A stretch of DNA of 64,000 nt from an uncultured Pseudomonadota bacterium (GTDB lineage: Bacteria > Oederibacteriota > Muellerivitia > Muellerivitales > Muellerivitaceae): positions 192,001-256,000 of the forward strand of contig CAWIIP010000004.1 in NCBI GenBank assembly GCA_963836235.1. The letters are read 5' to 3'. A program made the translations under genes and the position numbers. Below are positions 3,761 through 47,083 of the stretch, in pieces. Position 1 is the first letter of the stretch. Each line of letters starts with the position of its first letter. The notes below the pieces were generated by a model. That model was not told the DNA's origin, did no database searches, and saw only the letters and a program-made list of their open reading frames with translations.

Positions 3761-4048
3761 ATGGATAGGAGAAAACCAGACCGCAGAAACCCAAATCAGG
3801 ATCAGCTCTTGTCTGACAAACAGGTTGCCCTGATGGCCGGGGTGCCGGTCAATACCGTGAGTTATTGGCGCTTGGCGGGTATGCTTCCGTTCGTGAAGCT
3901 CGGAAGGCATCCGAGGGTTTGGCTGTCCGTGTTCCAAAAAACATTCCACCAACCAAAATCAAATGGCCCTTGGGAACCATTGAGTGAAGGTGTTAATATA
4001 CAAACACAAAGTGCAGGTGGCATTAGGAGGAAACATGGCAAGACCTAA
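3761..4048 (+). CDS. Excisionase-like HTH_17/MerR-type DNA-binding protein
   Basis: LLSDKQVALMAGVPVNTVSYWRLAGMLPFVKLGRHPR; overlaps integrase start. Confidence 0.8.
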   Translation: MDRRKPDRRNPNQDQLLSDKQVALMAGVPVNTVSYWRLAGMLPFVKLGRHPRVWLSVFQKTFHQPKSNGPWEPLSEGVNIQTQSAGGIRRKHGKT

Positions 4049-5144
4049 TGTACACGGATTACCGCAACATCTTCGAAAGGATGTGGCGGGATACTTTTTA
4101 GAGTATTACTTAAAAGAAGGAGGAATAAAAACTAGGAGAAGGGTCCGATTGGGACACATTCCTTTGGTCCAAGCCAAAAAATTACTGGCCCAAAACATGG
4201 CTGAGATTGTCGAGGGCAAGTTTTTATCAAGCGAAAAGGCGAAAGTCACATTTGCCGAATCCGCTGATTCGTTTTTGGCCTATTCCAAAGCCAGGAAAAA
4301 AAGCCACAGGAACGATCCACCGATCGTATCCCGGTTCAAGGCTTTTTTTGGAAACCGGTCTTTGGAAAGTTTGACCCCTGACCTCGTGGAGGCCTATTTG
4401 ATCCAGAGGCAACGGGATGGACAATTGAACCATAAGGGGAAGCCCATTACGGGAACCAGTTTGAACAAGGAAATTGCCTGCCTCAAGACGATAGTTCGGC
4501 GGGCGATGCTCAATGGACAGATTGATCGCAATCCGATTTTCGGGGTCCGCAAGTACAAGGAAGTACCTAGGAATAGGACCTTGAACCCGGAGGAGTTCCA
4601 GAAGCTTTTTGAGATGGCTACTCCCCGGTTGCGACCGATTATCGCGTTGGGCTACTACACCGGAATGAGGTGTGGGGAGGTCCTTGGTTTGAAGTTTACT
4701 CAACTGGACTTCAAACACAAAATCCTAGTTTTGGAAGCGTTGGACACAAAGACCATGGAGAGGAGGGAAATTCCCTTAAGTGACGCCTTGATCGGGTTGC
4801 TTAGGCAGGTTCCCCCGACCCTGGGAAGCCCCTACGTTTTCACATACAAAGGGAAACCCATGAAGAGCATCAAACGGGCTTTTAAGTGGGCTTGCCGTAA
4901 AGCGGGGATCGACAACTTTAGGTTCCACGATCTCAGACATTGTATGGTCACGAATTTCAGGAAGGCGGGGGTAAGTGACAACGTAATCATGTCGATTTCG
5001 GGCCATAAGACCCATTCGGTGTTCAGGCGGTATGACCGGGTGGATCGGGATGACCGGCATGGTGCCCTTCAAAAAGTTGAAATTTTGATAGACACGAATA
5101 AGACACTCGTAGAAAATCAGTGTCCCTCAGAGGGAGCTAAGTAG
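4035..5144 (+). CDS. int: Tyrosine recombinase/integrase
   Basis: TGMRCGE (R), K, FHDLRH (HxxR), SGHK, RRY catalytic residues; ATG 4035 after AGGAGG; adjacent to att. Confidence 0.93.
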   Translation: MARPNVHGLPQHLRKDVAGYFLEYYLKEGGIKTRRRVRLGHIPLVQAKKLLAQNMAEIVEGKFLSSEKAKVTFAESADSFLAYSKARKKSHRNDPPIVSRFKAFFGNRSLESLTPDLVEAYLIQRQRDGQLNHKGKPITGTSLNKEIACLKTIVRRAMLNGQIDRNPIFGVRKYKEVPRNRTLNPEEFQKLFEMATPRLRPIIALGYYTGMRCGEVLGLKFTQLDFKHKILVLEALDTKTMERREIPLSDALIGLLRQVPPTLGSPYVFTYKGKPMKSIKRAFKWACRKAGIDNFRFHDLRHCMVTNFRKAGVSDNVIMSISGHKTHSVFRRYDRVDRDDRHGALQKVEILIDTNKTLVENQCPSEGAK

Positions 5145-5526: not shown

Positions 5527-7371
5527 ATGAATACCGGGAATTTATTCAAGAAGATCGAGAGCCACACCCCCCCTCTCTTAGTCGGTTTTGCCACTTATTC
5601 GGGCCTTAAATTCATCCTAGAGGCCTTTGGGGTAATAGGTGTCTCCGTCAATCCTTTCGACACAATTTCGATCCTTTCCGTGGGTTTTCTCTACATGTTT
5701 GAGAAGCATGTCCGCTTGGACCACCTCTTGGCCTTAGCCCCCGCCGTCATTGCATTAGCATTTTGCCATGACTTTTTCGGGGTGTTGTTGGGGACGGATG
5801 GGTTTACAGGGGATGTAGTAATGGGTATTTCCATCCTCATTGGTTTTTGCGTTTATTTCATCCATTTCACAACGGAAAAAATTGCGGAACAATCGGCGGA
5901 ATCCCCAAAGGAGGAGAAGGGGAAATATCCCCTTTACCTTGATTCCGAGGATAAGTATTTCATCCCAACGGAAATGCTCAAATACCACGCAGAGGTTATT
6001 GGATCTTCCGGCACCGGAAAGACCAACATCTTCAATCACCTAATCGAGCAAGGCATCAAGAATGGGATTGGAATGTTTGTATTTGACGCGAAGTCTAACT
6101 ACAACAAACACATTCCATATTTCGCATCAAAATATGGGAGGCTCCATGACCTGAAATATTTTGATTTAGCCGATGTGAAGAGGAGTCAGACCTATAACCC
6201 TGATTTCAAGGATAAGCCGGACGAGGTTTTCAACGGTCTCATGAAGTCGTTATTTTATGGCCCCGTAAAAGAGGAATATTACAGGGACCAAGCAAGCGAA
6301 GTTTTAAGCAATCTGACAAACCTTCTTTTTAAGGAATTTACCCATGTCACAAGGATGGATTATCAGAACCTGATTTCAAACGAGATCAGATCGTTCAAGA
6401 CAATCCAATGGCTTGCCACGAAATACGAAGACACGGTTTCAGGAAAATACTTTTTAGAAAAATGGATGCACATGTCCGAAAAGGACAGGGAATTAAACCT
6501 ATCCGGCCTGACCAGCAAGCTTTCCAGATTCACCAGCCGGGAATGGTCGCCATTAATCAACACCCTAAATCCAGAGATCAAAATGAGGGACGTAGTCGAA
6601 AAACAGCAGATATTCTTATTTGGCACATCTTCCTTGGTGAACCAGGAGGATTCAAAACCAGTGATTATTTCGGCTTTGGTGGACTTGGCCGGTGTAATTG
6701 GAAGACGCCTTATTGAGAAGCCCCAAAAACCCTTTTTTGTCTTTTTGGACGAGTTCTACACCGCCGCATATCCAGGATTGAATGACCTAATATCCCTTGG
6801 ACGGGAGGCCAATGTTTGCTTTTTCTTGGCCCATCACAGTTTGGGCCAGCTTGGGGCGGTCAGTCAGGAGTTTAAGGACGACATATTAACGAATACGAAC
6901 CACAAGATCGTGATGAACATCACCGAAAAAGATACGGTGGATTTCTTCGCCTCCATATTCGGAACTAAGGTAACGAAAAAGGATGTTTATTCCTTTGATA
7001 CCAGATCAGCCCAGGCGAGGGGTAGGACTGAAAAGCCGGATGAGGAATTCATCATCCATCCCAATTACCTTAGGCTTATGAGGCGCGGGGAAGCTGTCTG
7101 TCGAATCGTTTATGTTACCGGTCCCAGGATATTTAAAATGAAACTCAAAGAAGTCAAAAGCCCTCCTGCCAGCTTTGATTATGTGGGCTGTGTTCCTACT
7201 AGGAACAATCATTTGAAGCCAAATGAATACAACAAGATCGTTGTTCCCAAAGTCGAAACAACCCCGAAATCCAAACCCAAAAAAGAGGGGGATCAGGTTC
7301 CTCCCACCAAATCCGTTCCTGAACCGAAACCCAAAACAAGTGGATTGAGCCACGGAGAAAATGCTTCCTAA
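5527..7371 (+). CDS. Type IV coupling protein (TraD/VirD4 family)
   Basis: N-terminal TMs; Walker A GSSGTGKT; FDAK; Walker B FLDEF; GREAN motif. Confidence 0.85.
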   Translation: MNTGNLFKKIESHTPPLLVGFATYSGLKFILEAFGVIGVSVNPFDTISILSVGFLYMFEKHVRLDHLLALAPAVIALAFCHDFFGVLLGTDGFTGDVVMGISILIGFCVYFIHFTTEKIAEQSAESPKEEKGKYPLYLDSEDKYFIPTEMLKYHAEVIGSSGTGKTNIFNHLIEQGIKNGIGMFVFDAKSNYNKHIPYFASKYGRLHDLKYFDLADVKRSQTYNPDFKDKPDEVFNGLMKSLFYGPVKEEYYRDQASEVLSNLTNLLFKEFTHVTRMDYQNLISNEIRSFKTIQWLATKYEDTVSGKYFLEKWMHMSEKDRELNLSGLTSKLSRFTSREWSPLINTLNPEIKMRDVVEKQQIFLFGTSSLVNQEDSKPVIISALVDLAGVIGRRLIEKPQKPFFVFLDEFYTAAYPGLNDLISLGREANVCFFLAHHSLGQLGAVSQEFKDDILTNTNHKIVMNITEKDTVDFFASIFGTKVTKKDVYSFDTRSAQARGRTEKPDEEFIIHPNYLRLMRRGEAVCRIVYVTGPRIFKMKLKEVKSPPASFDYVGCVPTRNNHLKPNEYNKIVVPKVETTPKSKPKKEGDQVPPTKSVPEPKPKTSGLSHGENAS

Positions 7372-7389: not shown

Positions 7390-8202
7390 ATGAGCGATTT
7401 TCTTGAGATTAACGAAAACGAAGCCGAACATCTTGCATGGATTCACTCAAATAAATTTACGATTCCCGACGTCTTTCATCAAAAATTTTTTAAGTCAAGT
7501 TACAGGTACGCTTGTCGAGTCCTCAGAAAATATTATCTAAAAAAAGGTTTTCTGAGTATGACAAAAGCAGAAGGGACAACCTTTCAAGATTCAATATATT
7601 TTCTTACGACAAACGCCTTAAGAAGTTTGGATTCCAAAAACAAAATCTTGGTTCGAGGGACAAAATTTCCGATAAAAGTGAATCCTTATGAAAGGCAACA
7701 TGATCTGATGGTTCAGGAGATTAGGGTTGCAATAGAGGCAAGCGAGGACTTATCCGATATATTTTGGGTAACGGATTTTGAAATGCGGTCTGGAATAACC
7801 CCTTCCATTAAAGCCAGATTCGTTGAGGGAAAATTTGACAAAAACGAATGGAGGTCAAATGGTTTGAACCCCAACAGCACTGGCCGTAGAACACCTGATG
7901 GTTATTTCGAAGCGGATTTGGAGGGGCAGAGGGAGGGATTTACCCTTGAGTTTGAACATCATCCTTACGACGACAGAAAATTCAATCGAATGGCATGGTA
8001 TTTAAAACAGTATTTTCCTAATGCTACAAAACTTGTCGTTTCCGCTAGCCGGGAGAATTCAATACGGATGATAAAAGCCCTTCAAACAAAAATTAAAAGC
8101 GGGGAACAAGATAAGTGGTTTGTTACGGATTTTGAAAAAATTAAAACACTACCATTCAAGAAAATATGGCATCAACTTAACCATCCATTGGAGAAAGTGT
8201 AA
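7390..8202 (+). CDS. Replication-relaxation (Replic_Relax-like) protein, candidate relaxase
   Basis: wHTH-like N-terminus, HDL, RTPDGYF..LEFE PD-(D/E)xK-like pattern; directly after T4CP. Confidence 0.6.
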   Translation: MSDFLEINENEAEHLAWIHSNKFTIPDVFHQKFFKSSYRYACRVLRKYYLKKGFLSMTKAEGTTFQDSIYFLTTNALRSLDSKNKILVRGTKFPIKVNPYERQHDLMVQEIRVAIEASEDLSDIFWVTDFEMRSGITPSIKARFVEGKFDKNEWRSNGLNPNSTGRRTPDGYFEADLEGQREGFTLEFEHHPYDDRKFNRMAWYLKQYFPNATKLVVSASRENSIRMIKALQTKIKSGEQDKWFVTDFEKIKTLPFKKIWHQLNHPLEKV

Positions 8203-8206
8203 CGGT

Positions 8207-8941
8207 TTAATCTTTATCCCTTTTTATAAAAGCTATGCTTTCAAAAAGTCTAGAGGCGTAGGCGTCTGCTGGAATTTTTACCCATGCTGGATTTATTTTA
8301 AGAATCCATAAAAAAATCAAAATGAGATCAAAAATAAATAAACCGGTTGTAATTTCTTTAATTGCAATTCCCCCACGTAAGTTTAAAGTTATTTCGAATA
8401 GTTGAAAAAAAGAAAGAGAAAATAGTATAAAAAGTGCAAAAGGTTTCATGGCCCACAGGTTCCGACGAAACCCATAACTCACGTTTTCTGTAAAGAGGAT
8501 CGAGAACTTTTTGGTGTCCCTGGTTCTTTCGATGAGGAAACGACAGAAGCTTTCGTAAATTTCATCTGCAAGTTGTGGATTCTTATTTTCAAAAGCTTTT
8601 GTTAATTTTTTTCTAATTTTTAGGTTTTTAGAGAGTTCAGTTAAATATCGTTTGTGTGTTATGGGGTCTAGCCATGTGTTTCGGAATCTTAGAATGGATA
8701 TACTTGGTTTTCCGGCCCACCTCTTAAATAACCAAGCTTCTTTTCGCTTTCCAGCATCGCGACCCGCTTCCCCTAAAAAGTGAATAATTCCGAATGAGGT
8801 AAGTATGGAGATAATGGATTTACGTTCAATCCAAAGCTCTGGGAACCTAATAATTAAAAAAAGGATTATGGGAAATAAAACAATAAGGGAGGCCAAAAAC
8901 CTAGCTTTATAGGCATAAAAGGCACTTGAAACAGTTGTCAT
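8207..8941 (-). CDS. Multi-TM membrane protein, divergent from MBL-E1/E2-JAB operon
   Basis: Two hydrophobic hairpins; ENVSYGFRRNL motif; low-GC like the adjacent operon. Confidence 0.6.
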   Translation of the reverse strand: MTTVSSAFYAYKARFLASLIVLFPIILFLIIRFPELWIERKSIISILTSFGIIHFLGEAGRDAGKRKEAWLFKRWAGKPSISILRFRNTWLDPITHKRYLTELSKNLKIRKKLTKAFENKNPQLADEIYESFCRFLIERTRDTKKFSILFTENVSYGFRRNLWAMKPFALFILFSLSFFQLFEITLNLRGGIAIKEITTGLFIFDLILIFLWILKINPAWVKIPADAYASRLFESIAFIKRDKD

Positions 8942-9017
8942 TAGAACCTATTTTCATTGGGGTAAAAAATTAAAGGCGACAAACCTATACCATAATATAA
9001 CCATTTAAGGAGTATGT

Positions 9018-10097
9018 ATGCGTAGCATCACTTTTTTCCAGGCTGGCAATGGGAATTTTTCGCTTGTCCAAGCTGATAACACAAACATTTTGATGGATAT
9101 GAAAAGCACCGAAGATAAGACCTCTTGGGAAATTGTGAAACCGTTTTTAAAGAAAGATGGAAAAAAATACATTTTGGACGTTCTTTCCGTATCGCATGGG
9201 GACCAGGACCATTGTGGTGGCTATACAGAGTTTCAAAAGTTAATGGATGAAGGAAAACTAGTAATCGGTTCTATTTGGCACCCCGACTATGACCGCACTG
9301 AAGTTTCTGAAGAAGAAGAATTGCCTGAGGATTATCTTATGCTCCATAAAGAAATACTTCGGCGTCAAAAAATCAAAAATCCTCAATTTGGGGAAATCCA
9401 AATACCTTTAACAACATTAGATGACGAAAAATCAGCTTTTAACGGTTTACAATTGCCCACTGATTTAAAACTGAAGGTTTTAAATCCTCATCATAAAGAC
9501 CAAGGTGATACTGAGTGGGACGTAAATGATTCAAGTCTAGTAATAAAATTATCCATTTCCGGCTTAAGAGTTTTATTTACTGGGGATTCGAGTTCGGAAG
9601 TTTGGCAAACAAGAATTATTCCTCTGACATTAAAGAAAAACGATAAATCAGATTGGGCAGAAGCTCAAATTTTAGTTGCATCACATCATGGTTCTGCTAC
9701 TTTTTTTGGCGTCGATAGAGAAACTGTTCTTAATGCCAAACCAACTCCTGAAAATTACAAGGCACTAGATTATATTAAACCTGAATTTTTGGTTCTTTCT
9801 GCATCGACAAAATTTCCGACGAGTGGGGATGAATCTGGAGATCTACCCCCTCACTATGCGGCTTGGAAGTGGTATCACAAATGGTTTAGAGAAAATAAGA
9901 ATGTTAAGGAAAGCGATAACCATCCCGATTTGTTCAAATATACGGCTAATGGGCACGTTCGTTTGCAATTGGGCGACGATAAAGAATGGAGATTTAAAGA
10001 AAATTGGACGCCTGATGATGATCCTGATAAAGGTAGCGATGTCCATTTTACAAATAAAGGCGGGGGAACTAAGCGCCAAGAATCAGGGTATGCGTGA
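9018..10097 (+). CDS. ComEC/Rec2-type metallo-beta-lactamase-fold hydrolase
   Basis: SHGDQDH, FTGD, SHHGS motifs; RBS AAGGAG. Confidence 0.85.
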   Translation: MRSITFFQAGNGNFSLVQADNTNILMDMKSTEDKTSWEIVKPFLKKDGKKYILDVLSVSHGDQDHCGGYTEFQKLMDEGKLVIGSIWHPDYDRTEVSEEEELPEDYLMLHKEILRRQKIKNPQFGEIQIPLTTLDDEKSAFNGLQLPTDLKLKVLNPHHKDQGDTEWDVNDSSLVIKLSISGLRVLFTGDSSSEVWQTRIIPLTLKKNDKSDWAEAQILVASHHGSATFFGVDRETVLNAKPTPENYKALDYIKPEFLVLSASTKFPTSGDESGDLPPHYAAWKWYHKWFRENKNVKESDNHPDLFKYTANGHVRLQLGDDKEWRFKENWTPDDDPDKGSDVHFTNKGGGTKRQESGYA

Positions 10098-10105
10098 ATT
10101 GAATA

Positions 10106-11914
10106 ATGACTTCTTTCCCTCCCGGCCTTTCAGAGGCAATTCAAAAAGGTTTATTAAAAGCTGCTTCAACACAATGTTGTGAATTTATTTCTGAAATTCG
10201 GCCTTCGACTAATGAGGGCTATTTTGAAATAGAAGCCATAATTGGTCCTGCGGATGTACCTCTAGGTTCTAGCCCACCAAAATATAAGGTCCGTTTTTTA
10301 ATACCAAAATCCTTCCCATATGACGTAATAGAGACCGTTCCCTTAGACCCAGCGTTAAAGTGGAACCAGCACCAATTTGCTGATGGAGATTATTCAAGGG
10401 CGAATATTATTTGTCCCCCGTCATTAAATAATATACCTGCTGAAGCATTATTCTTCCCTTATATCGAACATGCCTATAGATGGATTACTGATTGTTTATC
10501 GGGGACGCTCATAAAACCATTGGAAGATTATGAATTTCCGCATTTGGGGGAGGAGCCTAGAGGCAACTTCAATTTTTATATTGATATAGACAATTTTCCC
10601 CATTCATGGATTTCAAAAAATAAATTTGGTATGGCCTGGACCACTGAAATAAACGGAAGTAAATCAGGAAAGCTTTATCGTGTAAGGGAACTTGAGGCAA
10701 TAAACCCGCTTGAAGGCCCCAAAAACATAGAATCCAGCATACGAGACAATTGTTTTGTTAACGGGGAAACAAAGGGTTGGATTCCATGGATTTTCGGTGG
10801 CAATCCAGTCTTTAAAGTTCCACATCAACGTTTTCAAAAGCTTTCGGAATTTAGCTTAGAGTTTAGAGATGAATTTTTAAATGCTTGTAAAAATGTAATG
10901 GAAAAACAGTTTACTTTGCCGTATTTACTTTTAGCGTTTGAGATCCCACTTAAATGGTCGGGTACACCAAACAGAATATATTGGACTGCAATGAGTTTGA
11001 AGAAATTTAATGGTTCTTCATTTAAGTGTCCTCCGGGTTTTCGTCCGAAGACCTCTGATTTCAAAACGTGGCCTAATGTTACTCAATTTTTTAGAGAAAA
11101 CAATCCATTGTTACTAAACCATTGCGAAGATATTTCTCCTAACACAATGACATTGAGGAGCGGAGAAGAAAACGTGGATATGAAGTCGAAAAAAATTGTT
11201 ATTGTGGGTGTTGGTTCGCTTGGTTCAATGTTAACAAAATCGATCTCGAAATTAAGCCCGGCTAAAATCAAATTGATTGACAGTGGAAGGATTGAACCGG
11301 GTAATTTAATTCGGCACGAGGCATTAACTTCTCAAGTCGAGGAATTTAAAGCTGATGCAATGAGAATGTTAATAAAACCAATGTTTAAATCCTCTGAGGT
11401 GGTTTCCCTCGCGATTGATATTGTTTCTGGTTTGCCAAAATTTATTGAAGCTATTGCTGATACTGACTTAATACTTGATTGTACTGGAGACGCTGGTTCA
11501 AATTATATGTTGCTAAGTAATTCAAAATTTTTGACTCACAAAGTAGCAATCGCATTTATTAAACCCGGACCTGCTTTTGGGGTTTTAATTTTGAAAAACC
11601 CCGGCCTTAATATTTCTCCCCGCGCCTGTATTGATAAACTTAAAGAAGGAATTCCGGCAGATGTTTGGGAAAGATATAACAGTTCAGATTCTACGGAAAG
11701 CCAAGAAGTAAGAACTGCACCTGGTTGCTATTCAACTACCTTTTCCGCCCCTTATTATAGAATTAGATTGTTGGCCGATATGTTTCTTGCATCTATTCTT
11801 GGATGGTTGAATGGGGGAGCTTCCTCTAGTTTTATTTTATTGTTTGACCAAGTTGTTTCCGAAAGTGGATTAGGCGTAGATATTAAACGCTATGAAGTAA
11901 AAATTAATGATTGA
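10106..11914 (+). CDS. E2-E1(ThiF) fusion, Cap2-like ubiquitin-transferase-like enzyme
   Basis: N-terminal E2-like (FPY..P, ICPP Cys); ThiF GVGSLGS, D..EPGNLIRH, ILDCTG, PGCYSTTF Cys. Confidence 0.85.
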   Translation: MTSFPPGLSEAIQKGLLKAASTQCCEFISEIRPSTNEGYFEIEAIIGPADVPLGSSPPKYKVRFLIPKSFPYDVIETVPLDPALKWNQHQFADGDYSRANIICPPSLNNIPAEALFFPYIEHAYRWITDCLSGTLIKPLEDYEFPHLGEEPRGNFNFYIDIDNFPHSWISKNKFGMAWTTEINGSKSGKLYRVRELEAINPLEGPKNIESSIRDNCFVNGETKGWIPWIFGGNPVFKVPHQRFQKLSEFSLEFRDEFLNACKNVMEKQFTLPYLLLAFEIPLKWSGTPNRIYWTAMSLKKFNGSSFKCPPGFRPKTSDFKTWPNVTQFFRENNPLLLNHCEDISPNTMTLRSGEENVDMKSKKIVIVGVGSLGSMLTKSISKLSPAKIKLIDSGRIEPGNLIRHEALTSQVEEFKADAMRMLIKPMFKSSEVVSLAIDIVSGLPKFIEAIADTDLILDCTGDAGSNYMLLSNSKFLTHKVAIAFIKPGPAFGVLILKNPGLNISPRACIDKLKEGIPADVWERYNSSDSTESQEVRTAPGCYSTTFSAPYYRIRLLADMFLASILGWLNGGASSSFILLFDQVVSESGLGVDIKRYEVKIND

Positions 11915-12503
11915 AAAACCAAGTAGCAATTACAGTTTTAATTTTAAAACAGGCAGTCTCGAAGTGCATTTATCAAATTCTTTAATAGGTCAGCTAAGTC
12001 GTTTATCGAAATCCGCTTTGCCTAATGAAACTGGCGGAACTCTTCTGGGCTATTACAATGATTCAATGAAGATTGCAAATATTACTGAAATTTTGAAATC
12101 TGCCGGAAAACCCAAATCAACTCCAACTTCTTTTATTAGGCCAAGTGATACCAAGGAAACTGAGTCAAATAGAAGAATTTTGGCTTCACGTGGGCGTCTT
12201 TTTTATTTAGGCGAATGGCATTCACATCCAAAAGGGCCACCTTATCCAAGCCCTAATGATTTAATGTCTTGCTTTGAATTAGTTAAATATTCCAGAGTCC
12301 CGACCGAAACACCAATAATGCTTATAATTGGAAATGATCTGTCTGCTAATGTAAACAATATGGCTTGCTGTCTATTGGTGGCGAAAAAAGGCGCATGCGA
12401 AATTCAAAGAGCAGAAAGAATAAACGAACCGATACCACTTAAGAACCAAAGAAAACTTCGATTATTTACCAACGTAAAACTGCGAAAAAAATTGCATCTT
12501 TAA
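11907..12503 (+). CDS. JAB/Mov34 metallo-isopeptidase (Cap3-like)
   Basis: ETGG and GEWHSHP...PSPND JAMM motif. Confidence 0.9.
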   Translation: MIEKPSSNYSFNFKTGSLEVHLSNSLIGQLSRLSKSALPNETGGTLLGYYNDSMKIANITEILKSAGKPKSTPTSFIRPSDTKETESNRRILASRGRLFYLGEWHSHPKGPPYPSPNDLMSCFELVKYSRVPTETPIMLIIGNDLSANVNNMACCLLVAKKGACEIQRAERINEPIPLKNQRKLRLFTNVKLRKKLHL

Positions 12504-12548: not shown

Positions 12549-13238
12549 ATGTGCGTTTGTTACCAGCTAAACCTTCCCATTAAAAACATCGCAAAGGCCT
12601 TCAAGGCAAAACCGCCCAAAGTGACCTGGAATCCCTTGGACAAAATCCGGCCTTCCAACCTGGTTCCCGTGGTTATGGTTAATCCTCCAACAGGGGAGAG
12701 GGTTATTAAGCTAATGACGTGGGGAATGCCTTTTTACGATTTTCAAAAAAAGAAATTGGTTAAGCACCACCTCTTTAACGCTAGGTCCGAAACCATCACC
12801 GAAAAGAAAACCTTCAAAAGCCACTTCCAAAAGGACCGTATCTTGGTTCCGGTTTTTCCCGCCTTTGTTGAATGGCAGGACACCGGAGAAAAGCGAAAGA
12901 AGCCTTATGTGATTGGCCTAAAATCGAATGAGCCCTTTGCTTTTGCGGGTATATGGGGGAAATGGAACATGACCATCGAGGACGACGAAACCATCGAAAA
13001 GAAGTTGAAGGCAAATCCCAAGTATGTCCCGAAAAAAGAGGAAATCGAGTATTACTCAGTTATCACGACAACCCCAAACGAAGTAGTGGCTCCTATTCAC
13101 AACCGTATGCCTTGCATTCTGGACTCCCGGAACTACGATGCTTGGTTGGACCCCAAAATTGACCCGGAGATACTCAGACCCCTTTTGAAGCCCTTCCCAG
13201 CCGAGAAGATGCAAGCTAAACCAACGGGGAAAACCTAA
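12549..13238 (+). CDS. SOS response-associated peptidase (SRAP/YedK)
   Basis: Cys2, FNARSE, FVEW, FAFAGIW, IHNRMP motifs. Confidence 0.9.
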   Translation: MCVCYQLNLPIKNIAKAFKAKPPKVTWNPLDKIRPSNLVPVVMVNPPTGERVIKLMTWGMPFYDFQKKKLVKHHLFNARSETITEKKTFKSHFQKDRILVPVFPAFVEWQDTGEKRKKPYVIGLKSNEPFAFAGIWGKWNMTIEDDETIEKKLKANPKYVPKKEEIEYYSVITTTPNEVVAPIHNRMPCILDSRNYDAWLDPKIDPEILRPLLKPFPAEKMQAKPTGKT

Positions 13239-13275
13239 AAAAAGAATATTCGATTTATAGAGAAAGCTTTATTTT

Positions 13276-13584
13276 ATGAAGAAAAAAAGTTCCTCCCAAA
13301 AAGATCTATTCAATCAAGAACCAGAAAATCCCGATATGGTTCGTTTTATTAAACGAGATCGTAAATGGTCCCGTGAAATTCGTGAGTTGATTGCCACCAC
13401 ATCTTGTCCTCATTGTGGTTCTCGAAAAATCACTTACTTTGAATGGGGCCAAGGCGGTTTTGGACCAGAACACGATAAGCTGGTAGCGGAAGACCTTCTC
13501 ATCCAGAGGGGTTGCATCATGCAGAAGGATGAACCGGAATTTACCTGCCGCGATTGCAAAAAGAATTTCTCTAAAAATCCTTGA
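13276..13584 (+). CDS. Small zinc-ribbon protein
   Basis: CPHC ... GC ... CRDC. Confidence 0.6.
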   Translation: MKKKSSSQKDLFNQEPENPDMVRFIKRDRKWSREIRELIATTSCPHCGSRKITYFEWGQGGFGPEHDKLVAEDLLIQRGCIMQKDEPEFTCRDCKKNFSKNP

Positions 13585-13593
13585 AGTAGGCGT

Positions 13594-14298
13594 TTGAATA
13601 TGAAAATGAAATTTGCTCTCGTAAATGAAGAACGATTGGAGCCCCAGCCGGGCCTCAAAGGTAAGTGTTTCCTTTGTGAAAAACCCGTAGTTGCGAAGTG
13701 CGGAAAGATTAGGATTCCGCATTGGGCTCACCTTGGAAAGCTCGAATGTGACCCCTGGTGGAAGAACAAAACTGATTGGCATATTGATTGGCAAAATAAA
13801 TTTCCTAAGTCTTGGCAGGAATTTGTTCACCAAGCCACAAACGGTGAAAAACACTTTGCTGATGTAAAAACAGACCAAGGTTGGGTTCTTGAATTCCAAC
13901 ATTCCTTCATCAAACCGGACGAAAGAAATTCACGAAATAACTTTTACCCAAAAATAGTTTGGGTTGTAAACGGAATGAGGCGGAAGAATGACCTAAAGAA
14001 ATTTTTTGAAGTTGTAAAAAATAATGGTAAACAACTCAACCCAAAGGCACCAATATTGAAGTTAATGGGTTACTGGGATGAGTCTGCTCTTCTTCGTGAC
14101 TGGGCGGATAGTCCTGTGCCAGTATTCTTTGATTTCGGAGGAACTTCAGACCTTTGTTATTTACTTCCCAAGAGTGCCGATGGATTTCCTGATGTTGTAT
14201 GGTTCCCACGAACGTACTTCCTTGAACTATTTCTGAATGGGGCACAGAAAGTCAAAGATATGAACTTTTGGTTTTCGGATTTTATATCGGGCAATTAG
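13594..14298 (+). CDS. CoiA-like Zn-finger/PD-(D/E)xK nuclease family protein
   Basis: CFLC..KCG..HWAH, WH..WQ, HFADV..VLEFQHS motifs. Confidence 0.75.
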   Translation: MNMKMKFALVNEERLEPQPGLKGKCFLCEKPVVAKCGKIRIPHWAHLGKLECDPWWKNKTDWHIDWQNKFPKSWQEFVHQATNGEKHFADVKTDQGWVLEFQHSFIKPDERNSRNNFYPKIVWVVNGMRRKNDLKKFFEVVKNNGKQLNPKAPILKLMGYWDESALLRDWADSPVPVFFDFGGTSDLCYLLPKSADGFPDVVWFPRTYFLELFLNGAQKVKDMNFWFSDFISGN

Positions 14299-14751: not shown

Positions 14752-16227
14752 TTGAAAATCCTCATCGACACCAACATCGTTATTCCTCTTGAACCGGCAT
14801 CCACAGGCGACTTAGAGCCGGGTACCATCCTTGCCGCTGAATTTCATCGTTTGGCCGCCAAAGCGGGTCACCAGCTATTCATCCATCCCTTAATCCGACT
14901 GGATATTGATCGTGACCGCGATAGTGCTCGGGCTGACCTGCGTCGACAGTTAATTGGGAAATATAGCCAGTTAAATAACCCCCCAACCATTATTCAAAGA
15001 CCGATTCCGCCATTAGAGGCACCTGCCCAAGATAGTAATGATTGGGTTGATGTAAACCTATTGGTGGCATTGGACTCTAATGCCGTGGATATATTGGTGA
15101 CCGATGATGAAGATATCCATCGGAAGGCCTTGAAGGTTGGTTTGCAATCCAAGGTTGCGCGACTGCCAGATATGGTGGCGTCGCTAAAAGACCTGTTTGA
15201 TAAGGTTCATGAGCCGCCACCGGCAGTTGACTTCACTGAAGCTTATACTTTGAACGAGAGCGACCCGATATTTAATAGCGTGAGAGAGAGCTATGGAGCT
15301 GAGTTTGATCCTTGGTTACAGAAATGCAAGGCCCAACATCGGCACTGTTTTGTCATTCAGGATAAGTCGGCGGGAAAGTATGTCGGTGTGGCTATTCTGA
15401 ATAGAGAAGATGGCGCTTATGGTCTTGTGGGGAAGACCTTAAAACTCTGTACTTTTAAAATAGCGGACGAATATGGTGGGTACCGATACGGGGAATTGTT
15501 GTTGAAAGCTGTTTTTGATTATGCGGTAAACAACCAATACGATGGCGTATTTGTAACGGCTTATCCTGACAAAGATCGTTTGATTCGAACGTTTCAAGAT
15601 TTTGGGTTTCAAATTGTTGAGCAAGGTGCCCAAGTGGTTCTTGTGAAGCGATTCACTTATACACGGGCTGAATACGATTTGGTTGAACCGCTAGTTTTCC
15701 ATACTCTTTATGGGCCGATGGCGACTAAATTTGAGGGAAACAACACTCACATTGTCCCAATTCAGCCGGAATTTCATAAGCTCTTGTTCCCGGAATATGA
15801 ACCACAACCCGAACTGTTCCCAGGCCAGCATCCCTGTGGGAACAGTATCAAGAAGGCTTACCTGTGTCATTCGGCTACCCGTCAATTAAAACCAGGGGAT
15901 AATCTTTTGTTCTATCGGTCCGAGGATGATAAAGCGATAACAGCGGTGGGAATCGTTGAGGAGTTCATTGTTTCTTCTTCTGCGGATGAGATTGCCCAAT
16001 ATGTAAGCACAAGAACGGTCTATTCTTATGATGACATTAAAGCTATGTGCGAAACGGAAACATTGGCGATTAAATTCCGACTTGTTAAAATCGTTAAGCC
16101 GGTTATCCCGCTTAAGGACTTAAAGAAAAATAAGGTGGTAAAAGAACATCCGCAGGCTATTCACAAGATTAAAACAGGGAGTGCTGAATGGGTAAGAGAA
16201 GCGACGAGCCTTCAACCGAAGTATTGA
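14752..16227 (+). CDS. PIN-GNAT-EVE/PUA-like multidomain protein
   Basis: ILIDTN and D..L..LVTDD (PIN); LKLCTFK..GYRYGELLL..FQDFGF (GNAT); KAYLCH..LKPGDNLLFYRS (EVE/PUA); TTG start. Confidence 0.75.
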   Translation: MKILIDTNIVIPLEPASTGDLEPGTILAAEFHRLAAKAGHQLFIHPLIRLDIDRDRDSARADLRRQLIGKYSQLNNPPTIIQRPIPPLEAPAQDSNDWVDVNLLVALDSNAVDILVTDDEDIHRKALKVGLQSKVARLPDMVASLKDLFDKVHEPPPAVDFTEAYTLNESDPIFNSVRESYGAEFDPWLQKCKAQHRHCFVIQDKSAGKYVGVAILNREDGAYGLVGKTLKLCTFKIADEYGGYRYGELLLKAVFDYAVNNQYDGVFVTAYPDKDRLIRTFQDFGFQIVEQGAQVVLVKRFTYTRAEYDLVEPLVFHTLYGPMATKFEGNNTHIVPIQPEFHKLLFPEYEPQPELFPGQHPCGNSIKKAYLCHSATRQLKPGDNLLFYRSEDDKAITAVGIVEEFIVSSSADEIAQYVSTRTVYSYDDIKAMCETETLAIKFRLVKIVKPVIPLKDLKKNKVVKEHPQAIHKIKTGSAEWVREATSLQPKY

Positions 16228-16691
16228 TTTCGATTTACCAGAAATATGCGGAAGCCATATTGAAAGGTGAGAAAATCATTGAATTTCGCAAAGCGCAATT
16301 CCCAAAAAACGTATCCCGTGTCTATCTATATTCCACGAGCCCCGTTCAAAAGGTCATCGGTCATTTTGATGTAAAAGACGTTCTTCGAGCTAGTCCTCGG
16401 AGTTTGTGGAACGAATACGGGAAACATGGCTCGATCGGTTATGCTGATTATGTTAATTACTATGGAGACGCGGAAGAGGCTTGTGGAATACTTGTTAAGA
16501 GTGTCGTTCGATATTTGCGACCGGTGGATTTAAAGGAAATTGATCCCTCAATGTCGGTACCACAAAGTTATCGTTACCTTACTGAGGATCTTATTGAAAA
16601 GCTGGAAAGTAAATCTTTAAAAAATCGATCAAGCTATTTTTCACGAATAGTTTCCTCTGCATTTGGATTGGGAAAGATGTTTGCGAGGTAA
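16188..16691 (+). CDS. ASCH domain protein
   Basis: LISI..YAEAILKGEKIIEFRK, YSTSPVQKVIG, PQSYRYL. Confidence 0.85.
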   Translation: MGKRSDEPSTEVLISIYQKYAEAILKGEKIIEFRKAQFPKNVSRVYLYSTSPVQKVIGHFDVKDVLRASPRSLWNEYGKHGSIGYADYVNYYGDAEEACGILVKSVVRYLRPVDLKEIDPSMSVPQSYRYLTEDLIEKLESKSLKNRSSYFSRIVSSAFGLGKMFAR

Positions 16692-27808: not shown

Positions 27809-30436
27809 GTGCCTAAATATTTACGGCTCTACAACCAATTTGTTAATTTCGTAAAAATGGTGGAGAAAGAATTAACTACCGATTACGAACGTAAACTCAT
27901 CAATCTAATTTTGGAGGATTTTGACGCGATAAAGGACAAGAAAGCCACCAAGGGTTTGCGGGGGAAACACCTTTACGAGTTGATTAAGAAAAAAGGAAAA
28001 AGTGTTTCGCCTACGATCACGGTTTCTTCGACTAACACTCAGTCAGGTGGGTTTTCTTTCGTCGGTCTTGATTCCATTGTGGTAGAACATTTTCGGGGGT
28101 TCTCCGAAAAAGAGACATTCAAATTCGACCGTCCATTCACGTTTGTCTTCGGCCCAAATGGAAGCGGTAAATCCAGCCTCTGTGAAGCGCTCGAATTCTC
28201 CATGCTTGGATACATCCAGGAAGCAATAGCCAAAGATATCGACGTCCAAGAGTACACGACCAACTGTTTCGATGAAAAGCAAAGTGATCCCGTCCTTAAG
28301 GCAAAGGATGCATCGGGGAATATCATCGACATTTCCCAGAACCAAGACTTGCAATTCTGTTTCATAGAAAAAAGCCGGATCGAAAGCTTTGCAAGGATTT
28401 CAGCAAACACCCCGAAAAAGATGGAGGAGCAACTCGCAACATTGTTTGGCCTGGATGAGTTCAACGAATTTGTCGGAGATTTTAACAAGAAGGTTGACGA
28501 TTATTTTGAAATGGATTCTCTTAAGGCAAGGGAATATGAGGCCAAAAGCGCCGGGATGCCGGGCATTAGGGAGAACCTGGAAGGGGAAAAAAAGAAGAAG
28601 GGGGAAGCAGAAGCCAAGATTGCTGAAATTGTAAAAAACTCCGGGATTCCCTCGGTGGGGGATTTCGAATTTGCGTTTGTAAGCCCGAAAACAGGAACTA
28701 AGACCAAACTGGAAGAAATGAGCGAAAAACTTTCAGCGCCGACGTCCCAATCTCTCGTTTTTCCAACGGTTATCAAAATAGTGGAGGATATCAAGGCGGC
28801 GAAAACCGCTTTGGTTCCGCTAACCGCAATTCGGAGCCAGTTGACCTCCCGCAAAAAAGAATTCCAATTCCGCGATCTTTTCGAAGCTGCGTCCGTAGTT
28901 GAAACTTTATGGACAGAATCCTGTCCCCTGTGCGAAACGCCAATGGATGAAGTCCACAAACATCCATACGACAACGCCCGTGCCAAACTGAAGGAACTGG
29001 AGACACTTGCCGCTTTTGAAAATCAGGAAGAAAAAGATTATGAGATATTTTTGGAAAAGATAGACGCCATGGATAAATCCACCGAATCTTTCAACGCTGT
29101 CCTGGTCTCCAATGGGAAAGATTCCTTTCAGTTCGACGCCATCCCTTGGCCCGGGAAGAACAGGGCGGACAGGGATCTTGCCATTGCACACCACGAAACG
29201 GTTGAAATATTTACAAACCAAAGAATGAAAGAATTGGTCGAGGCGGAGGCTTCATTAACAGCAATTAATTCCAAGATTCAAGACGAAATGAAAGCAAAAG
29301 CCGTTCTTCGGGCTGAATACGAACGGCTAAAAATTGAAAAAGACAGTTATATACAAGAAAAAGCTAATGTGAAAAATTGCGATGACCGAATCCAACAAGC
29401 GGAAAAAACGATTGCAACTTTTGAAGCCGAAACAGCCACTCTGAAAGCAGAGGTCCAGTCAGAAAAGGAACGTATTGACCAAAATAAACTATGGCTTTCG
29501 GCTTACGATAGCTTTAAGGAAAAGCTCGACGTCTATAAAGATCAACTACCCCTCAGGTACGTACAAAAACTCAGCGAGCTTACGTGTTCGATCTACAACC
29601 AATTAAATCAGCATGACCGGGAATATGAAAAGGCGTTATCAATTGATCTTCCTAAAACCACTGCCGATTCCATCAAGATAGAATTCGCCAAAAATCCCGG
29701 TTCTAAATTTGATGCCTTGCTTGTATTAAGCGAAGGGCATCTGCGGTGCTTAGGGCTCTCGATACTCATGGCGAAGAACATTGATGACAATTGCCCGGTG
29801 ATAATTTTTGACGATGTGGTTAATGCAATCGACGACGAACATAGGAGCGGAGTGGCCGACCTCCTCTTTGAATTTGATCGGTTGCGGGGTAAACAGATAA
29901 TACTAACGACCCACGCTGAACATTTCATATCCGACCTTCAATTGAAAGTGCCGGCCCAGAACAAGAAGGATTTGATTCATGTCTATAATTTTCAATCAGA
30001 TGAAAAAAGGCGGAAAATAAATATTGATTCCAAATCCCGGAATCATCTTGAACGCGCCGATGAACATTATTCCGACGGACGAATGGACGATACGCTTCAT
30101 AGCTGTAGGTTGGCACTTGATAACATTGCCGAGGCTTTATGGAAAAGACTATGGAAAAAGGGTTATGCCGCAACAATTAGGGTTCCTCTAAGAGAACTCC
30201 ATGCCAAGCCGGATACAAAAAATGCCATCGAAGCATTGAAATCCTTCATCAAGACTAAGAATGTTACTGAATTTATAGGGACTGATGAGCATTTTGAGTA
30301 TTTGTTACAGGAGGATGTCTGGAGCCAATTTAATATTGCTTCTCATGAAATGGGAGGTAAACCGACTTTCAACAACGCCATCATTAAGGAAATTGTGGGT
30401 AGGTGTTATAAGATCGATGCGATTGTAAAAAGCTAA
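27809..30436 (+). CDS. Rad50/SbcC-like ABC ATPase with zinc hook (RloC-like)
   Basis: FRGF, GPNGSGKS, CPLC hook in coiled coil, LSEG signature, IFDD, TTH; helical C-terminus with N..SH. Confidence 0.75.
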   Translation: MPKYLRLYNQFVNFVKMVEKELTTDYERKLINLILEDFDAIKDKKATKGLRGKHLYELIKKKGKSVSPTITVSSTNTQSGGFSFVGLDSIVVEHFRGFSEKETFKFDRPFTFVFGPNGSGKSSLCEALEFSMLGYIQEAIAKDIDVQEYTTNCFDEKQSDPVLKAKDASGNIIDISQNQDLQFCFIEKSRIESFARISANTPKKMEEQLATLFGLDEFNEFVGDFNKKVDDYFEMDSLKAREYEAKSAGMPGIRENLEGEKKKKGEAEAKIAEIVKNSGIPSVGDFEFAFVSPKTGTKTKLEEMSEKLSAPTSQSLVFPTVIKIVEDIKAAKTALVPLTAIRSQLTSRKKEFQFRDLFEAASVVETLWTESCPLCETPMDEVHKHPYDNARAKLKELETLAAFENQEEKDYEIFLEKIDAMDKSTESFNAVLVSNGKDSFQFDAIPWPGKNRADRDLAIAHHETVEIFTNQRMKELVEAEASLTAINSKIQDEMKAKAVLRAEYERLKIEKDSYIQEKANVKNCDDRIQQAEKTIATFEAETATLKAEVQSEKERIDQNKLWLSAYDSFKEKLDVYKDQLPLRYVQKLSELTCSIYNQLNQHDREYEKALSIDLPKTTADSIKIEFAKNPGSKFDALLVLSEGHLRCLGLSILMAKNIDDNCPVIIFDDVVNAIDDEHRSGVADLLFEFDRLRGKQIILTTHAEHFISDLQLKVPAQNKKDLIHVYNFQSDEKRRKINIDSKSRNHLERADEHYSDGRMDDTLHSCRLALDNIAEALWKRLWKKGYAATIRVPLRELHAKPDTKNAIEALKSFIKTKNVTEFIGTDEHFEYLLQEDVWSQFNIASHEMGGKPTFNNAIIKEIVGRCYKIDAIVKS

Positions 30437-33687: not shown

Positions 33688-35307
33688 ATGGGTTCAATAT
33701 ATTTAAACGGGTTGAATGTCGAGCAAAGGAAAGCTTTGGTCGAAAAGTTATTTAAAACACAAAATGGTAAGTGTTTTATTTGTGAAAAGGAAATTGACCT
33801 AACTCTTCATTCTGATTCGGTTGACATAGACCATGTAGAACCACAAAAAGTTGGGGGAAAAGATGATCCGAGTAATTTTGCTTTAACCCATGATTCCTGT
33901 AACAGATCGAAGCAAGCAAGTGATCTGCGAGTTGCAAGAGTTCTTTCTCGTTTCGAAAAGATTAAAGAAGAAGTAGAAGCGGCAGTAAATCGTGGCCCGA
34001 ATTTAAGTGATGTTCTGCAAAGGTACCAAGGGGCAAGGTACGACCTCCCAATGAAAATTGAAGACGGTTACATTTCTTTTTCTTTTCCAGATTTAAAGAT
34101 TAATCAAATTGTTAAAGTTCCCTTATATAAGGATGAATTAAGCGGCCTTCAATATTTTTTTGCAAAATTACCAATTGAATATTTGTTCCATGATGATCGT
34201 GTTAATCCGAGATCAGTAGGAGGAAGTCTTCATGGATTGGTGGAGGAGTTTCATAGGAAACGACCCCAACTTCAAATTGGATTGGCTTGGTCCGAATTAA
34301 AGGGAAGCGACGTTCGAGGAAAAATTCAAGTTTTCGATGGACAGCATAAAGCAACCGCCCAAGTGTTGCTTGGGACCAGGGAAATTCCATTACGAGTTTT
34401 TTTAAACCCCAATTTAGATATTTTATTAACGACAAATACGAATGCAGGTACTACGTTACGCCAAGTGGCTTTTGACAAATCAGTCCAAAGACACTTGGGG
34501 AGCGCATTGTTTGCGGATCGAATTCAAAGGTATCGAAAAGACCGTGGTTTGAAAGATGACGATGAGAATTTTTCTGAAAAAGATCTTGTCAATCACTTCA
34601 GGGGTGAATGGCGAGAAATGAGAAAATACATTCTTGATGCGGTAAGAGATTACATTACTCATAACGTAGAAAATAAATTAAAAGATTATGTGGATTTCGC
34701 CGGCAAAGGTAAGGAGAAGCCTTTGTCATATAGCACAATGGAAAAAACATTTTATTCTTTTTTTATTTTACAAGAAGCTTTGGAAACTCCTTTAAATTAT
34801 CGTTTAGATGAGAATGAAAACCCTCGGGAGTTAGAGAAACAACAAATATTGCAATTGATGAATTTAATTGCTGAAAAAATTTATATCGGTCGTTTTGACC
34901 CTGCATTAGGTACAGCTAGAATAGAAAACAAAATTCAAAAAGGCGAGGATGTTCCCGAACCACATTTGATAGCTTATCGGTTGAGTCGTGAAGAAATAAT
35001 TTATACTTGGTTAAAGATTGTGAGAAACATTGCGCATAATTATTTCATCATGACCGGAAAATCAATCCATGAAGAAAAACTCTTTCAATACAAGTTTCCT
35101 GAACCTTTATGGGACAATATTGAGAATTTCCTTGTGAATTTAACCAAGATGCCATTATGGATTAACCGGGATCTTTCTTTATCAGTGTTTGGCGGTAAAC
35201 AAAATAATGAATATTGGCAAACGATTTTCGAGACTGGAAAGACACCATCCGGACAAGCGGTTTTACCGGCGGGTGTAAATTTCATTAAAATGATTCAACA
35301 AAGTTAA
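33688..35307 (+). CDS. HNH endonuclease fused to ParB/DGQHR-like domain
   Basis: CFIC..IDHVEP..GG..N..H..CN.SK; NPR and FDGQHK. Confidence 0.75.
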   Translation: MGSIYLNGLNVEQRKALVEKLFKTQNGKCFICEKEIDLTLHSDSVDIDHVEPQKVGGKDDPSNFALTHDSCNRSKQASDLRVARVLSRFEKIKEEVEAAVNRGPNLSDVLQRYQGARYDLPMKIEDGYISFSFPDLKINQIVKVPLYKDELSGLQYFFAKLPIEYLFHDDRVNPRSVGGSLHGLVEEFHRKRPQLQIGLAWSELKGSDVRGKIQVFDGQHKATAQVLLGTREIPLRVFLNPNLDILLTTNTNAGTTLRQVAFDKSVQRHLGSALFADRIQRYRKDRGLKDDDENFSEKDLVNHFRGEWREMRKYILDAVRDYITHNVENKLKDYVDFAGKGKEKPLSYSTMEKTFYSFFILQEALETPLNYRLDENENPRELEKQQILQLMNLIAEKIYIGRFDPALGTARIENKIQKGEDVPEPHLIAYRLSREEIIYTWLKIVRNIAHNYFIMTGKSIHEEKLFQYKFPEPLWDNIENFLVNLTKMPLWINRDLSLSVFGGKQNNEYWQTIFETGKTPSGQAVLPAGVNFIKMIQQS

Positions 35308-35366
35308 TCGAGATTTAAAACTTAAATTTCCAATTTAGATAAATTAGGAAAAATGGGAGTGTTTTT

Positions 35367-46792: not shown

Positions 46793-47083
46793 ATGGCTAT
46801 TCCTTTAGAAAAAGAATCCAAAATGTGGGGTCTCTTTTATACCTCCGATTTTAACAAATTGATGTTTGCCATTATCGGCAACGCCCTTGCCTTCATGGTG
46901 TTTTTCATTTTTTGGGGCCTTGAAGGCGCATTAGTCCTTTTCTTCGCAACCATGATCCTCGTGACCACTTACTACGTCATGAAGAGTTTTTGGCCCGAAA
47001 AATACTTTGAAAACATCATCCGTTACCACAACGAACCAAAACAATATTTTCCCGGCGGGGAAGCAAGCGAGTTTGAGAAATGA
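46793..47083 (+). CDS. VirB3/PrgI-like membrane protein
   Basis: Small 2-TM protein overlapping virB4 start; E.K.WG and PKQY motifs. Confidence 0.6.
   Translation: MAIPLEKESKMWGLFYTSDFNKLMFAIIGNALAFMVFFIFWGLEGALVLFFATMILVTTYYVMKSFWPEKYFENIIRYHNEPKQYFPGGEASEFEK

Follow-up and report, generated by a model that had tools for sequence, protein, structure and literature searches.

Introduction

The system called 6A-MBL corresponds to an operon type, 6a, that Iyer, Burroughs and Aravind described in 2006 (PMC1779556), and it includes a protein with the metallo-β-lactamase (MBL) fold. Here, we analysed a related locus in a 64-kb stretch of DNA from an uncultured bacterium (contig CAWIIP010000004.1), which is referred to, at its full length, as the window. 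We consider it likely that this locus is a 6A-MBL-type ('type II MBL') operon that conjugates its MBL through the protein's own tail and acts together with a membrane protein. The 6A-MBL system reportedly received its name, and was tested, in the work of van den Berg et al. in 2024 (Cell Host Microbe 32:1427). It is catalogued as anti-phage (PMC13276650; 10.1101/2025.09.30.679545), and the latter source, a preprint, counts it among the jumbo-phage defences of P. aeruginosa. In the discussion of another paper (PMC11601596), the mechanism is presented as one in which the enzyme becomes conjugated to unknown targets, and the MBL is termed a 'signaling enzyme'. The idea of MBL conjugation is already in print and the class is known, which agrees with a preliminary description of the window, made from the sequence alone, that the operon may not be wholly new. 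The wording 'type II Pycsar' and 'MBL operons' was confined to papers of the Corbett lab in the literature searched.

Two forms of the cyclic oligonucleotide-based antiphage signaling system (CBASS) are also close to the locus. Type II CBASS with Cap2 and Cap3 is exemplified by the systems of E. cloacae and V. cholerae (10.1101/2022.03.31.486616; PMC10097602). The E. cloacae cGAS ends in ..GRFA, and this end is adenylated in the E1 site of Cap2, the catalytic cysteines of which are C109 and C548; Cap3 is also able to cut C-terminal fusions off cGAS (10.1101/2022.03.31.486616). In the E2-only form (type II short, Serratia marcescens CdnG-E2), the E2 acts as a protease that removes the residues past a conserved Gly and ends up covalently linked to the cyclase (PMC12948482). 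The third group to be compared consists of gated MBL DNases, such as HamM, which are accompanied by trypsin-like proteases in the Hachiman, AVAST, Lamassu and DRT systems (PMC12799240; 10.1101/2025.09.03.673762).

Organization and Class of the Locus

Three genes of the locus lie on the forward strand. The first one (9018-10097) codes for a ComEC-like MBL-fold metallo-hydrolase of 359 aa, the proposed conjugated protein. It is followed by the genes of a Cap2-like E2-E1 fusion (10106-11914, 602 aa) and of a Cap3-like JAB/JAMM isopeptidase (11907-12503, 198 aa). The three open reading frames (ORFs) are tightly coupled, as had been noted before: 8 nt separate the MBL stop from the E2-E1 start, and the E2-E1 and JAB genes overlap by 8 nt. 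A ribosome-binding site, AAGGAG (9007-9012), was read in the sequence 5 nt ahead of the MBL start codon. It lies in a divergent intergenic region of 76 nt (8942-9017), on the other side of which a gene on the reverse strand (8207-8941) codes for a 244-aa membrane protein of a family that we call memb. A scan for promoters and terminators gave no more sites than shuffled sequence did (9 versus a mean of 15), and therefore no promoter is claimed for this region. The preliminary description was right about the three forward genes but had overlooked the membrane-protein gene. We propose the latter as a fourth component, which may be an effector, an anchor or a target, and with it the locus can, with fair probability, be counted as a four-gene operon.

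The NCBIfam families that fitted best were those of 6A-MBL. For the MBL it was 6A-MBL_enzyme (NF058524; 1.4e-31, 109.9 bits against a cut-off of 220). The E2-E1 and JAB proteins matched consecutive parts of one model, 6A-MBL_cap2_3 (NF058523), at model positions 213-531 (7.7e-31, 107.3 bits) and 538-664 (1.3e-26, 93.4 bits), respectively, each against a cut-off of 320. The resemblance to 6A-MBL named in the preliminary description was thereby recovered, at scores under the cut-offs. As in 6A-MBL, the MBL gene adjoins genes for E2, E1 and JAB activities, and both a ubiquitin-like protein and a cyclase are lacking; the tail of the MBL is disordered in the model and ends with a small residue of the kind that an E1 could adenylate. 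Canonical fused operons, on a C. perfringens plasmid and in Bacteroidota, likewise have a memb-family gene at their flank. The locus differs from the type in that the latter has a single triple-module E2-E1-JAB protein (PMC1779556, Table 1, row 6a), whereas the window has two genes. In addition, the terminal residue of the window MBL is Ala after Tyr, not Gly, and the membrane gene is divergently oriented. Judged by sequence, the operon is best classed as a split-gene, divergent variant of the known 6A-MBL anti-phage system. Separate E2-E1 and JAB genes likewise occur in close relatives (locus records L004, L069, L070, L086 and L095), and fused E2-E1-JAB proteins of 755-794 aa in L136, L138, L139, L141 and L142.

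The presence of separate Cap2-like and Cap3-like genes is also a feature of type II CBASS. However, a metallo-hydrolase occupies the cyclase position in the window, and a CD-NTase (cGAS/DncV-like nucleotidyltransferase) was found neither in the operon nor in the genome. No PADLOC cyclase model matched among the 11 neighbouring proteins, and Pfam SMODS gave 0 matches in the genome, which is 99.4% complete. The ORF list of the window contained no free-standing small ubiquitin-like ORF. Both absences had been stated in the preliminary description and were upheld.

E2-E1 and JAB Enzymes

The E2-E1 protein matched ThiF in Pfam (8e-13) and E1-E2 in PADLOC (2.7e-34). A profile of seven E2-E1 sequences was compared with the structure of Cap2 (7to3), which gave an E-value of 5.3e-33 and a colinear alignment of profile positions 139-494 with chain positions 143-499. 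Both candidate catalytic cysteines claimed earlier were located: Cys103 of the E2 domain in the motif NIICPP (nt 10403-10420) and Cys541 of the E1 domain in the motif PGCY (nt 11720-11731). They are invariant in 7/7 aligned proteins, and their positions differ by 6-7 residues from those of C109 and C548, the catalytic cysteines of E. cloacae Cap2. The adenylation motifs GVGSLGS (368-374) and GNLIRH (399-404) are present as well. Catalytic cysteines and adenylation motifs stand at positions colinear with those of Cap2.

The JAB protein matched Prok-JAB in Pfam (2e-16). Its metal motif is intact and consists of E41 and H105-x-H-x7-S-x2-D118, the second part being HSHPKGPPYPSPND (residues 105-118, nt 12219-12260). 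This protein is far closer to the 6A-MBL model (6A-MBL_cap2_3, 1.3e-26) than to CBASS Cap3 (7.8e-8), which is a further difference from type II CBASS.

In other relatives, the MBL gene is followed by that of a small protein, which was recognized by PADLOC as a CBASS-type E2 in 27 loci (4e-25 to 3e-38). Pfam gave no match for these small E2s or for the membrane proteins. A profile of the stand-alone E2 showed no significant match to the E2-E1 alignment (hhalign probability 0.6%); the E2 and E1-E2 models of PADLOC are thus the only connection between the two E2 types.

C-Terminal Tail of the MBL and Type of Ligase

The MBL has a flexible, acidic and Gly-rich tail (residues 330-359, nt 10005-10094), which ends with Tyr358-Ala359 and is the proposed site of adenylation and conjugation. 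The last five residues are ESGYA, in agreement with the tail quoted in the preliminary description, and residues 339-348 and 354-359 have a predicted local distance difference test score (pLDDT) <50 in the structural model. Among 75 close MBL homologues, 40 end in an aromatic residue and Ala and 2 in an aromatic residue and Gly. In another 30 the aromatic-Gly/Ala motif is followed by 1-7 extra residues, and it is absent in 3, one of which is a partial record. The same kind of ending was frequent in more distant MBL representatives. From residue frequencies, we estimate that roughly 2% of proteins would end in this way by chance. Since relatedness of the sequences inflates the motif count, the co-variation of the tail with the neighbouring genes was examined.

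For this census, the window and 47 loci of close relatives, of genomic or metagenomic origin, were classed with hidden Markov models (HMMs) built for the purpose. It comprised 12 E2-E1 loci, 27 E2-only loci and 9 that were cut or unclassifiable. Next to an E2-E1 gene, the MBL terminates exactly in [YF]-Ala in 10/12 cases, the two exceptions having the ends EYAKK and EYGR. Next to a stand-alone E2, the aromatic-Gly/Ala dipeptide is followed by 1-6 residues in 25/27 cases; the MBLs of the remaining two are frameshifted. In two identical patatin-bearing E2-only loci, the MBL gene runs over two frames (2844-3970 of L010 and 3482-4608 of L093), owing to a frameshift or a sequencing error. In two loci with fused E2-E1-JAB, the MBL ends in Gly, and in three two-gene loci composed of MBL and membrane protein, without any E2, the motif is missing. 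This analysis revealed that the form of the MBL C-terminus tracks the kind of ligase encoded next to the gene.

This pattern mirrors the one known in CBASS. The aromatic-Ala end of the window MBL resembles the ..GRFA end of E. cloacae cGAS. The MBLs of the E2-only relatives resemble the cyclase of E2-CBASS in pairing with a stand-alone E2 and in carrying extra residues past a conserved Gly; the window itself has full E1 and JAB activities, so this comparison covers the relatives and the mode of docking only. The capacity of Cap3 to cut C-terminal fusions would explain the two E2-E1 loci with extra tail residues. Taken together, the comparative evidence supports the view that the MBL is probably conjugated through its own tail.

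Predicted Complex of the MBL with E2-E1

The complex of E2-E1 with the MBL was predicted by controlled co-folding with purpose-built alignments, and the median of 3 runs was used. The score was 0.73, compared with 0.00 for the best control. The score mark was attained by 116 of 157 solved complexes and by 2 of 215 mismatched pairs, counts that hold only roughly here because purpose-built alignments were used. The runs shared at least 58% of contacts, and the partner pLDDT was at least 86. In the confident contacts of the model, MBL residues 304-331 (the last three strands) and 340-346 (part of the tail) meet residues 10-26, 47-56, 71 and 111-121 of the N-terminal E2 region. The MBL would thus dock by its three-stranded sheet on the E2 region, which recalls the helix-plus-sheet motif of CdnG in E2-CBASS. 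Because a Cap2-cyclase complex has been solved, the E2-E1 side of the prediction may be remembered; no complex of an MBL partner has been solved. With regard to the tail in the E1 site, the modelling of which was proposed in the preliminary description, the model supports docking of the MBL on E2-E1 but does not put the end of the tail into the E1 pocket, and hence the adenylation geometry is not supported by it.

The preliminary description had also named the MBL itself as the conjugated modifier. This suggestion gains support from the conservation of the tail, its co-variation with the ligase, the likeness to a Cap2 substrate and the docking model, and we retain it as the probable role of the protein.

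Fold and Active Site of the MBL

The match of the MBL to Pfam Lactamase_B was under the cut-off (3e-4). PADLOC, the use of which had been suggested before, assigned it to the MBL models of LmuA, DRT (RTasMBL) and Avs1a (1.6e-15 to 3.3e-11), and the NCBIfam match to Avs1a was 8.8e-13, far under the cut-off. The best solved structures for a profile of 39 relatives were ComEC MBL domains (2e-7). The AlphaFold model of the MBL (pLDDT 87.3, predicted template modelling score 0.87) led to the same result: its best fold match was the ComEC MBL domain 9ic4 (E 4.7e-14, template modelling (TM) score 0.75 on the target), and the second best was the phosphorylcholine esterase Pce. The catalytic core covers approximately residues 1-300 and is followed by the three-stranded C-terminal sheet (304-331). 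The ComEC-type H-x-D-x-DH motif has the form HGDQDH (residues 60-65, nt 9195-9212). The metal-ligand residues are intact, and H60, D62, D64, H65, H88, D190, H223 and H224 are invariant in the alignment of 39 relatives. A tblastn search of plasmids with the MBL found distant copies only, all with <28% identity; between the protein and the plasmid copies, which come from genera including Clostridium and Hymenobacter, identity is only approximately 25-27%.

These similarities bear on another explanation, in which the MBL is a terminal DNase effector in the style of HamM and Avs1a, and the E2-E1 and JAB enzymes only switch it on and off or tether it. The role of the membrane protein would then be merely to hold the MBL at the inner membrane, the site of phage DNA entry, like the MBL domain of ComEC at the uptake channel. 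The LmuA, DRT and Avs1a models are the best PADLOC matches of the window MBL, it is ComEC-like by both profile and fold, its metal-binding residues are invariant, and its relatives are DNases that stay inactive until a partner enzyme acts (PMC12799240). Common to both arrangements is a latent enzyme whose partner controls it by acting directly on it. On the other hand, the similarity to HamM-type models in PADLOC is confined mainly to the first 110-160 residues of the MBL. The control module of the window is a ubiquitin-like ligase with an isopeptidase, and no protease domain besides JAB, including a trypsin-like one, was found among the 12 proteins scanned with Pfam. The presence of phospholipase genes that replace or join the membrane protein in relatives is also left unexplained. 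We regard this explanation as possible but rather unlikely.

Membrane Protein and Its Homologues

The memb protein has a pair of hydrophobic helices at each terminus and, between the pairs, a conserved helical domain of approximately 100 residues, which we infer to be cytoplasmic. It had no match in Pfam, PADLOC or NCBIfam; the PADLOC check suggested earlier was thus successful for the E2-E1 and MBL proteins and not for this one. In total, 220 homologues were found, and in an alignment of 25 sequences, R61, P79, R141, Y156, G157, R160 and N161 were invariant. The model of the protein is all-helical (pLDDT 91). Among 48,161 chains, a fold search found only chains of G-protein-coupled receptors, as helical-bundle matches of a generic kind (best Z 7.8), and a protein-atlas lookup gave only unnamed clusters. 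These matches are uninformative on function. As regards the effector of type II CBASS, which is activated by a cyclic nucleotide, the window has a membrane-protein partner, and no ligand-sensing domain was recognized in the membrane proteins by Pfam, PADLOC, NCBIfam or the fold search.

The memb family is associated with MBL genes in other genomes. The two closest homologues of the window protein (65% and 61% identity) appear to share contigs with the two closest MBLs, and one of them seems also to share its contig with the closest E2-E1. A memb homologue is located after the E2 in L002, L006, L080, L088 and L092, whereas in L073 it immediately precedes the MBL. A profile search found the family in 7/401 Bacteroidota genomes, and an MBL gene was adjacent at 7/7 of these loci (including L134-L139). 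Three are bare MBL and memb pairs, one has a fused E2-E1-JAB, two have a fused E2-E1-JAB and a patatin, and one is of the E2-only form. The C. perfringens plasmid pCP8533etx (L141) carries memb and MBL genes together with a 760-aa ThiF-family fused E2-E1-JAB, and C. perfringens is among the species listed for type 6a in 2006 (PMC1779556). In the record of this plasmid (42604-46869), the upstream 242-aa 'hypothetical protein' belongs to the memb family (HMM 1.5e-30), and the public annotation makes no link between it and the canonical fused operon. In the E2-E1 (long-class) loci, a membrane-protein gene is directly upstream of the MBL in 9/10 evaluable cases; these proteins form a loose single superfamily, which includes PDC-M48A of PADLOC. 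On this comparative evidence, the gene at 8207-8941 appears to belong to the system, and with such a partner present it becomes less safe to assume that the MBL acts as the sole, terminal effector.

A literature search found no printed account of the membrane partner or of E2-only MBL operons, which is not proof of absence. The PADLOC candidate PDC-M48 was considered for the locus and rejected: the window membrane protein had no PADLOC match, and the MBL matched PDC-M48B at 7.6e-5 only. The name 'PDC-M48' was not found in the literature searched.

Exchange of Partners among Related Loci

The third gene of the 27 E2-only loci varies. It codes for a memb-family protein in 5 of them, a PDC-M48A-like protein in 8 (PADLOC 1.8e-55) and a patatin in 8, and in the other 6 there is none or the contig is cut. 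The patatin phospholipase replaces the membrane protein in some relatives and accompanies it in others, and memb and patatin occur together in L138 and L139. In a tree of the MBLs, obtained by a quick search, with several unsupported forks and near-identical rows included, the E2-only MBLs fell within one group (23/23, support 84), and the patatin and the PDC-M48A-like protein each appeared in two separate subclades of close MBLs. Patatin loci hold 2-3 MBL genes, and a second, shorter and distant MBL flanks the patatin. These extra genes are located at 2186-3052 of L005, 1840-2766 of L079, 307-1227 of L083 and 3784-5855 of L139.

A different explanation places the MBL upstream, as a sensor or an enzyme that makes a signal. 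Like the cyclase of CBASS, it would be the constant core, regulated by the E2 or by E2-E1 and JAB, and the variable partner, a membrane protein or patatin, would be the effector. The effector would answer either the reaction product of the MBL or the conjugated MBL. This is consistent with the constant MBL-E2 core beside a third gene that varies over the 27 loci, with the occurrence of patatin and PDC-M48A-like genes in two subclades each, and with the E2-less two-gene loci of MBL and membrane protein, which resemble type I CBASS without Cap2. The conserved, Arg-rich soluble domain of the memb protein and the term 'signaling enzyme' in the discussion of PMC11601596 agree with it as well. Several points speak against it. 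The nearest solved or characterized MBL relatives are nucleases, and the membrane proteins scanned contain no recognized ligand-sensing domain. To our knowledge, no MBL-fold enzyme produces a second messenger. The co-occurrence of memb and patatin in L138 and L139 indicates that the two are not simple alternatives, and the tree was a quick one with several forks unsupported. We consider it doubtful that the MBL is such an upstream enzyme with a separate effector.

Genomic Context

The operon is present in one copy in the genome. The MBL was found in 0/40 relatives searched (E 1e-10), of which 24 belong to the same family and some are 63-85% complete. The GC content is 0.35-0.39 over 7.5-12.5 kb and about 0.45-0.48 around it. 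The operon is accessory and lies in a horizontally acquired defence island, and the window in its entirety has the appearance of such an island.

The operon is flanked on one side by an integrase and a TraD-like ATPase, and on the other by PDC-M11, an LmuB-like ATPase and a type IIG restriction enzyme. The tyrosine integrase (3984-5144) matched Phage_integrase at 8.6e-24. No tRNA gene was found in the 64-kb window; therefore, no attachment site is proposed for this integrase. Three TraD/TrwB-like coupling-type ATPases are encoded at 28-1326, 5527-7371 and 47080-49647 (PADLOC mad8 1.7e-18, 1.2e-16 and 1.8e-16, respectively). The second of them is located just upstream of the MBL system and is followed by a 270-aa protein without a family (7390-8202). 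Directly past the JAB gene, the region 12549-14298 codes for an SOS-response-associated peptidase (SRAP, 6e-47), for a zinc-ribbon protein of 102 aa and for a protein of 234 aa that begins like CoiA_N in Pfam (13594-14298). Farther downstream, PADLOC and Pfam identified the overlapping pair PDC-M11A (2.9e-169; GNAT and EVE) and PDC-M11B (1.1e-40; ASCH) at 14752-16691. They are followed by an SMC/LmuB-like ATPase (27809-30436; PADLOC LmuB 3.5e-26) and by an HNH protein beside a type IIG restriction-methyltransferase (33688-38588; 5.1e-77).

A ComEC-like MBL near a CoiA_N-like protein could also point to a non-defence module for housekeeping or DNA uptake. The SRAP, zinc-ribbon and CoiA-like neighbours, however, do not recur beside any of the related MBL loci examined, and the competence or DNA-uptake explanation was dropped on this ground. 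Its probability is very low also in view of the missing operon in the 40 relatives, the defence candidates in the neighbourhood (PDC-M11, the LmuB-like ATPase and the type IIG restriction enzyme) and the cataloguing of the family as anti-phage (NCBIfam names; PMC13276650; 10.1101/2025.09.30.679545).

Proposed Mechanism and Its Significance

By analogy with known systems, we infer the chemical steps, the anti-phage role of this copy, the substrate of the MBL and the task of the membrane protein. As in type II CBASS, the E1 domain would adenylate the free carboxylate of Ala359 of the MBL. The MBL would then be passed as a thioester to Cys541 and further to Cys103 of the E2 domain, and finally be ligated to an amine on a target. 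The JAB enzyme would strip the conjugate and, in relatives, also trim extra C-terminal residues, and in this way the system would be held in check. Conjugation may prime or relocate the ComEC-like metallo-phosphodiesterase, and defence at the level of the cell would be carried out jointly with the neighbouring membrane protein.

Four points weigh against this mechanism. The locus counts are not independent, since many of the rows come from close relatives and several of these are the same. The predicted interface does not put the last MBL residues into the E1 pocket. The MBL, E2-E1 and JAB proteins are all under the equivalog cut-offs of NCBIfam. Finally, HamM and the Avs1a partner, which are the closest characterized MBLs of defence systems, are terminal DNases triggered by proteolysis, not by conjugation (PMC12799240). 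If the MBL is conjugated through its tail, it may serve either as a nuclease effector or in an upstream role, and we give these two possibilities about equal weight. The DNase nature of the nearest characterized relatives favours the former. The constant MBL-E2 core, the swapped partners and the E2-less two-gene forms favour the latter.

Taken alone, the operon adds one member to a defence family that is already catalogued, and its interest lies in the comparative handles on mechanism. The strict link between tail form and ligase predicts the chemistry used by each MBL variant. A conserved membrane partner outside the annotation of Pfam, PADLOC and NCBIfam provides one testable handle, and the exchange between patatin and membrane partners around an MBL-E2 core that stays constant provides another. 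Together, the tail link, the membrane partner and the effector swaps raise the question of whether the hydrolase is a weapon or a sensor. In a broader and tentative reading, to which we assign a low probability, the MBL systems form a second, cyclase-free family on the CBASS plan, in which the MBL senses or signals and the membrane or patatin genes kill. Its 'type I' would consist of a ComEC-like MBL with a membrane or phospholipase effector. Regulators would have been added to it repeatedly, either a stand-alone E2 that cuts a C-terminal extension ('type II short') or E1-E2 with JAB, acting on a free aromatic-Gly/Ala end ('type II'). If this were true, it would imply either that immune signals of a new kind exist or that membrane effectors are activated by conjugation.

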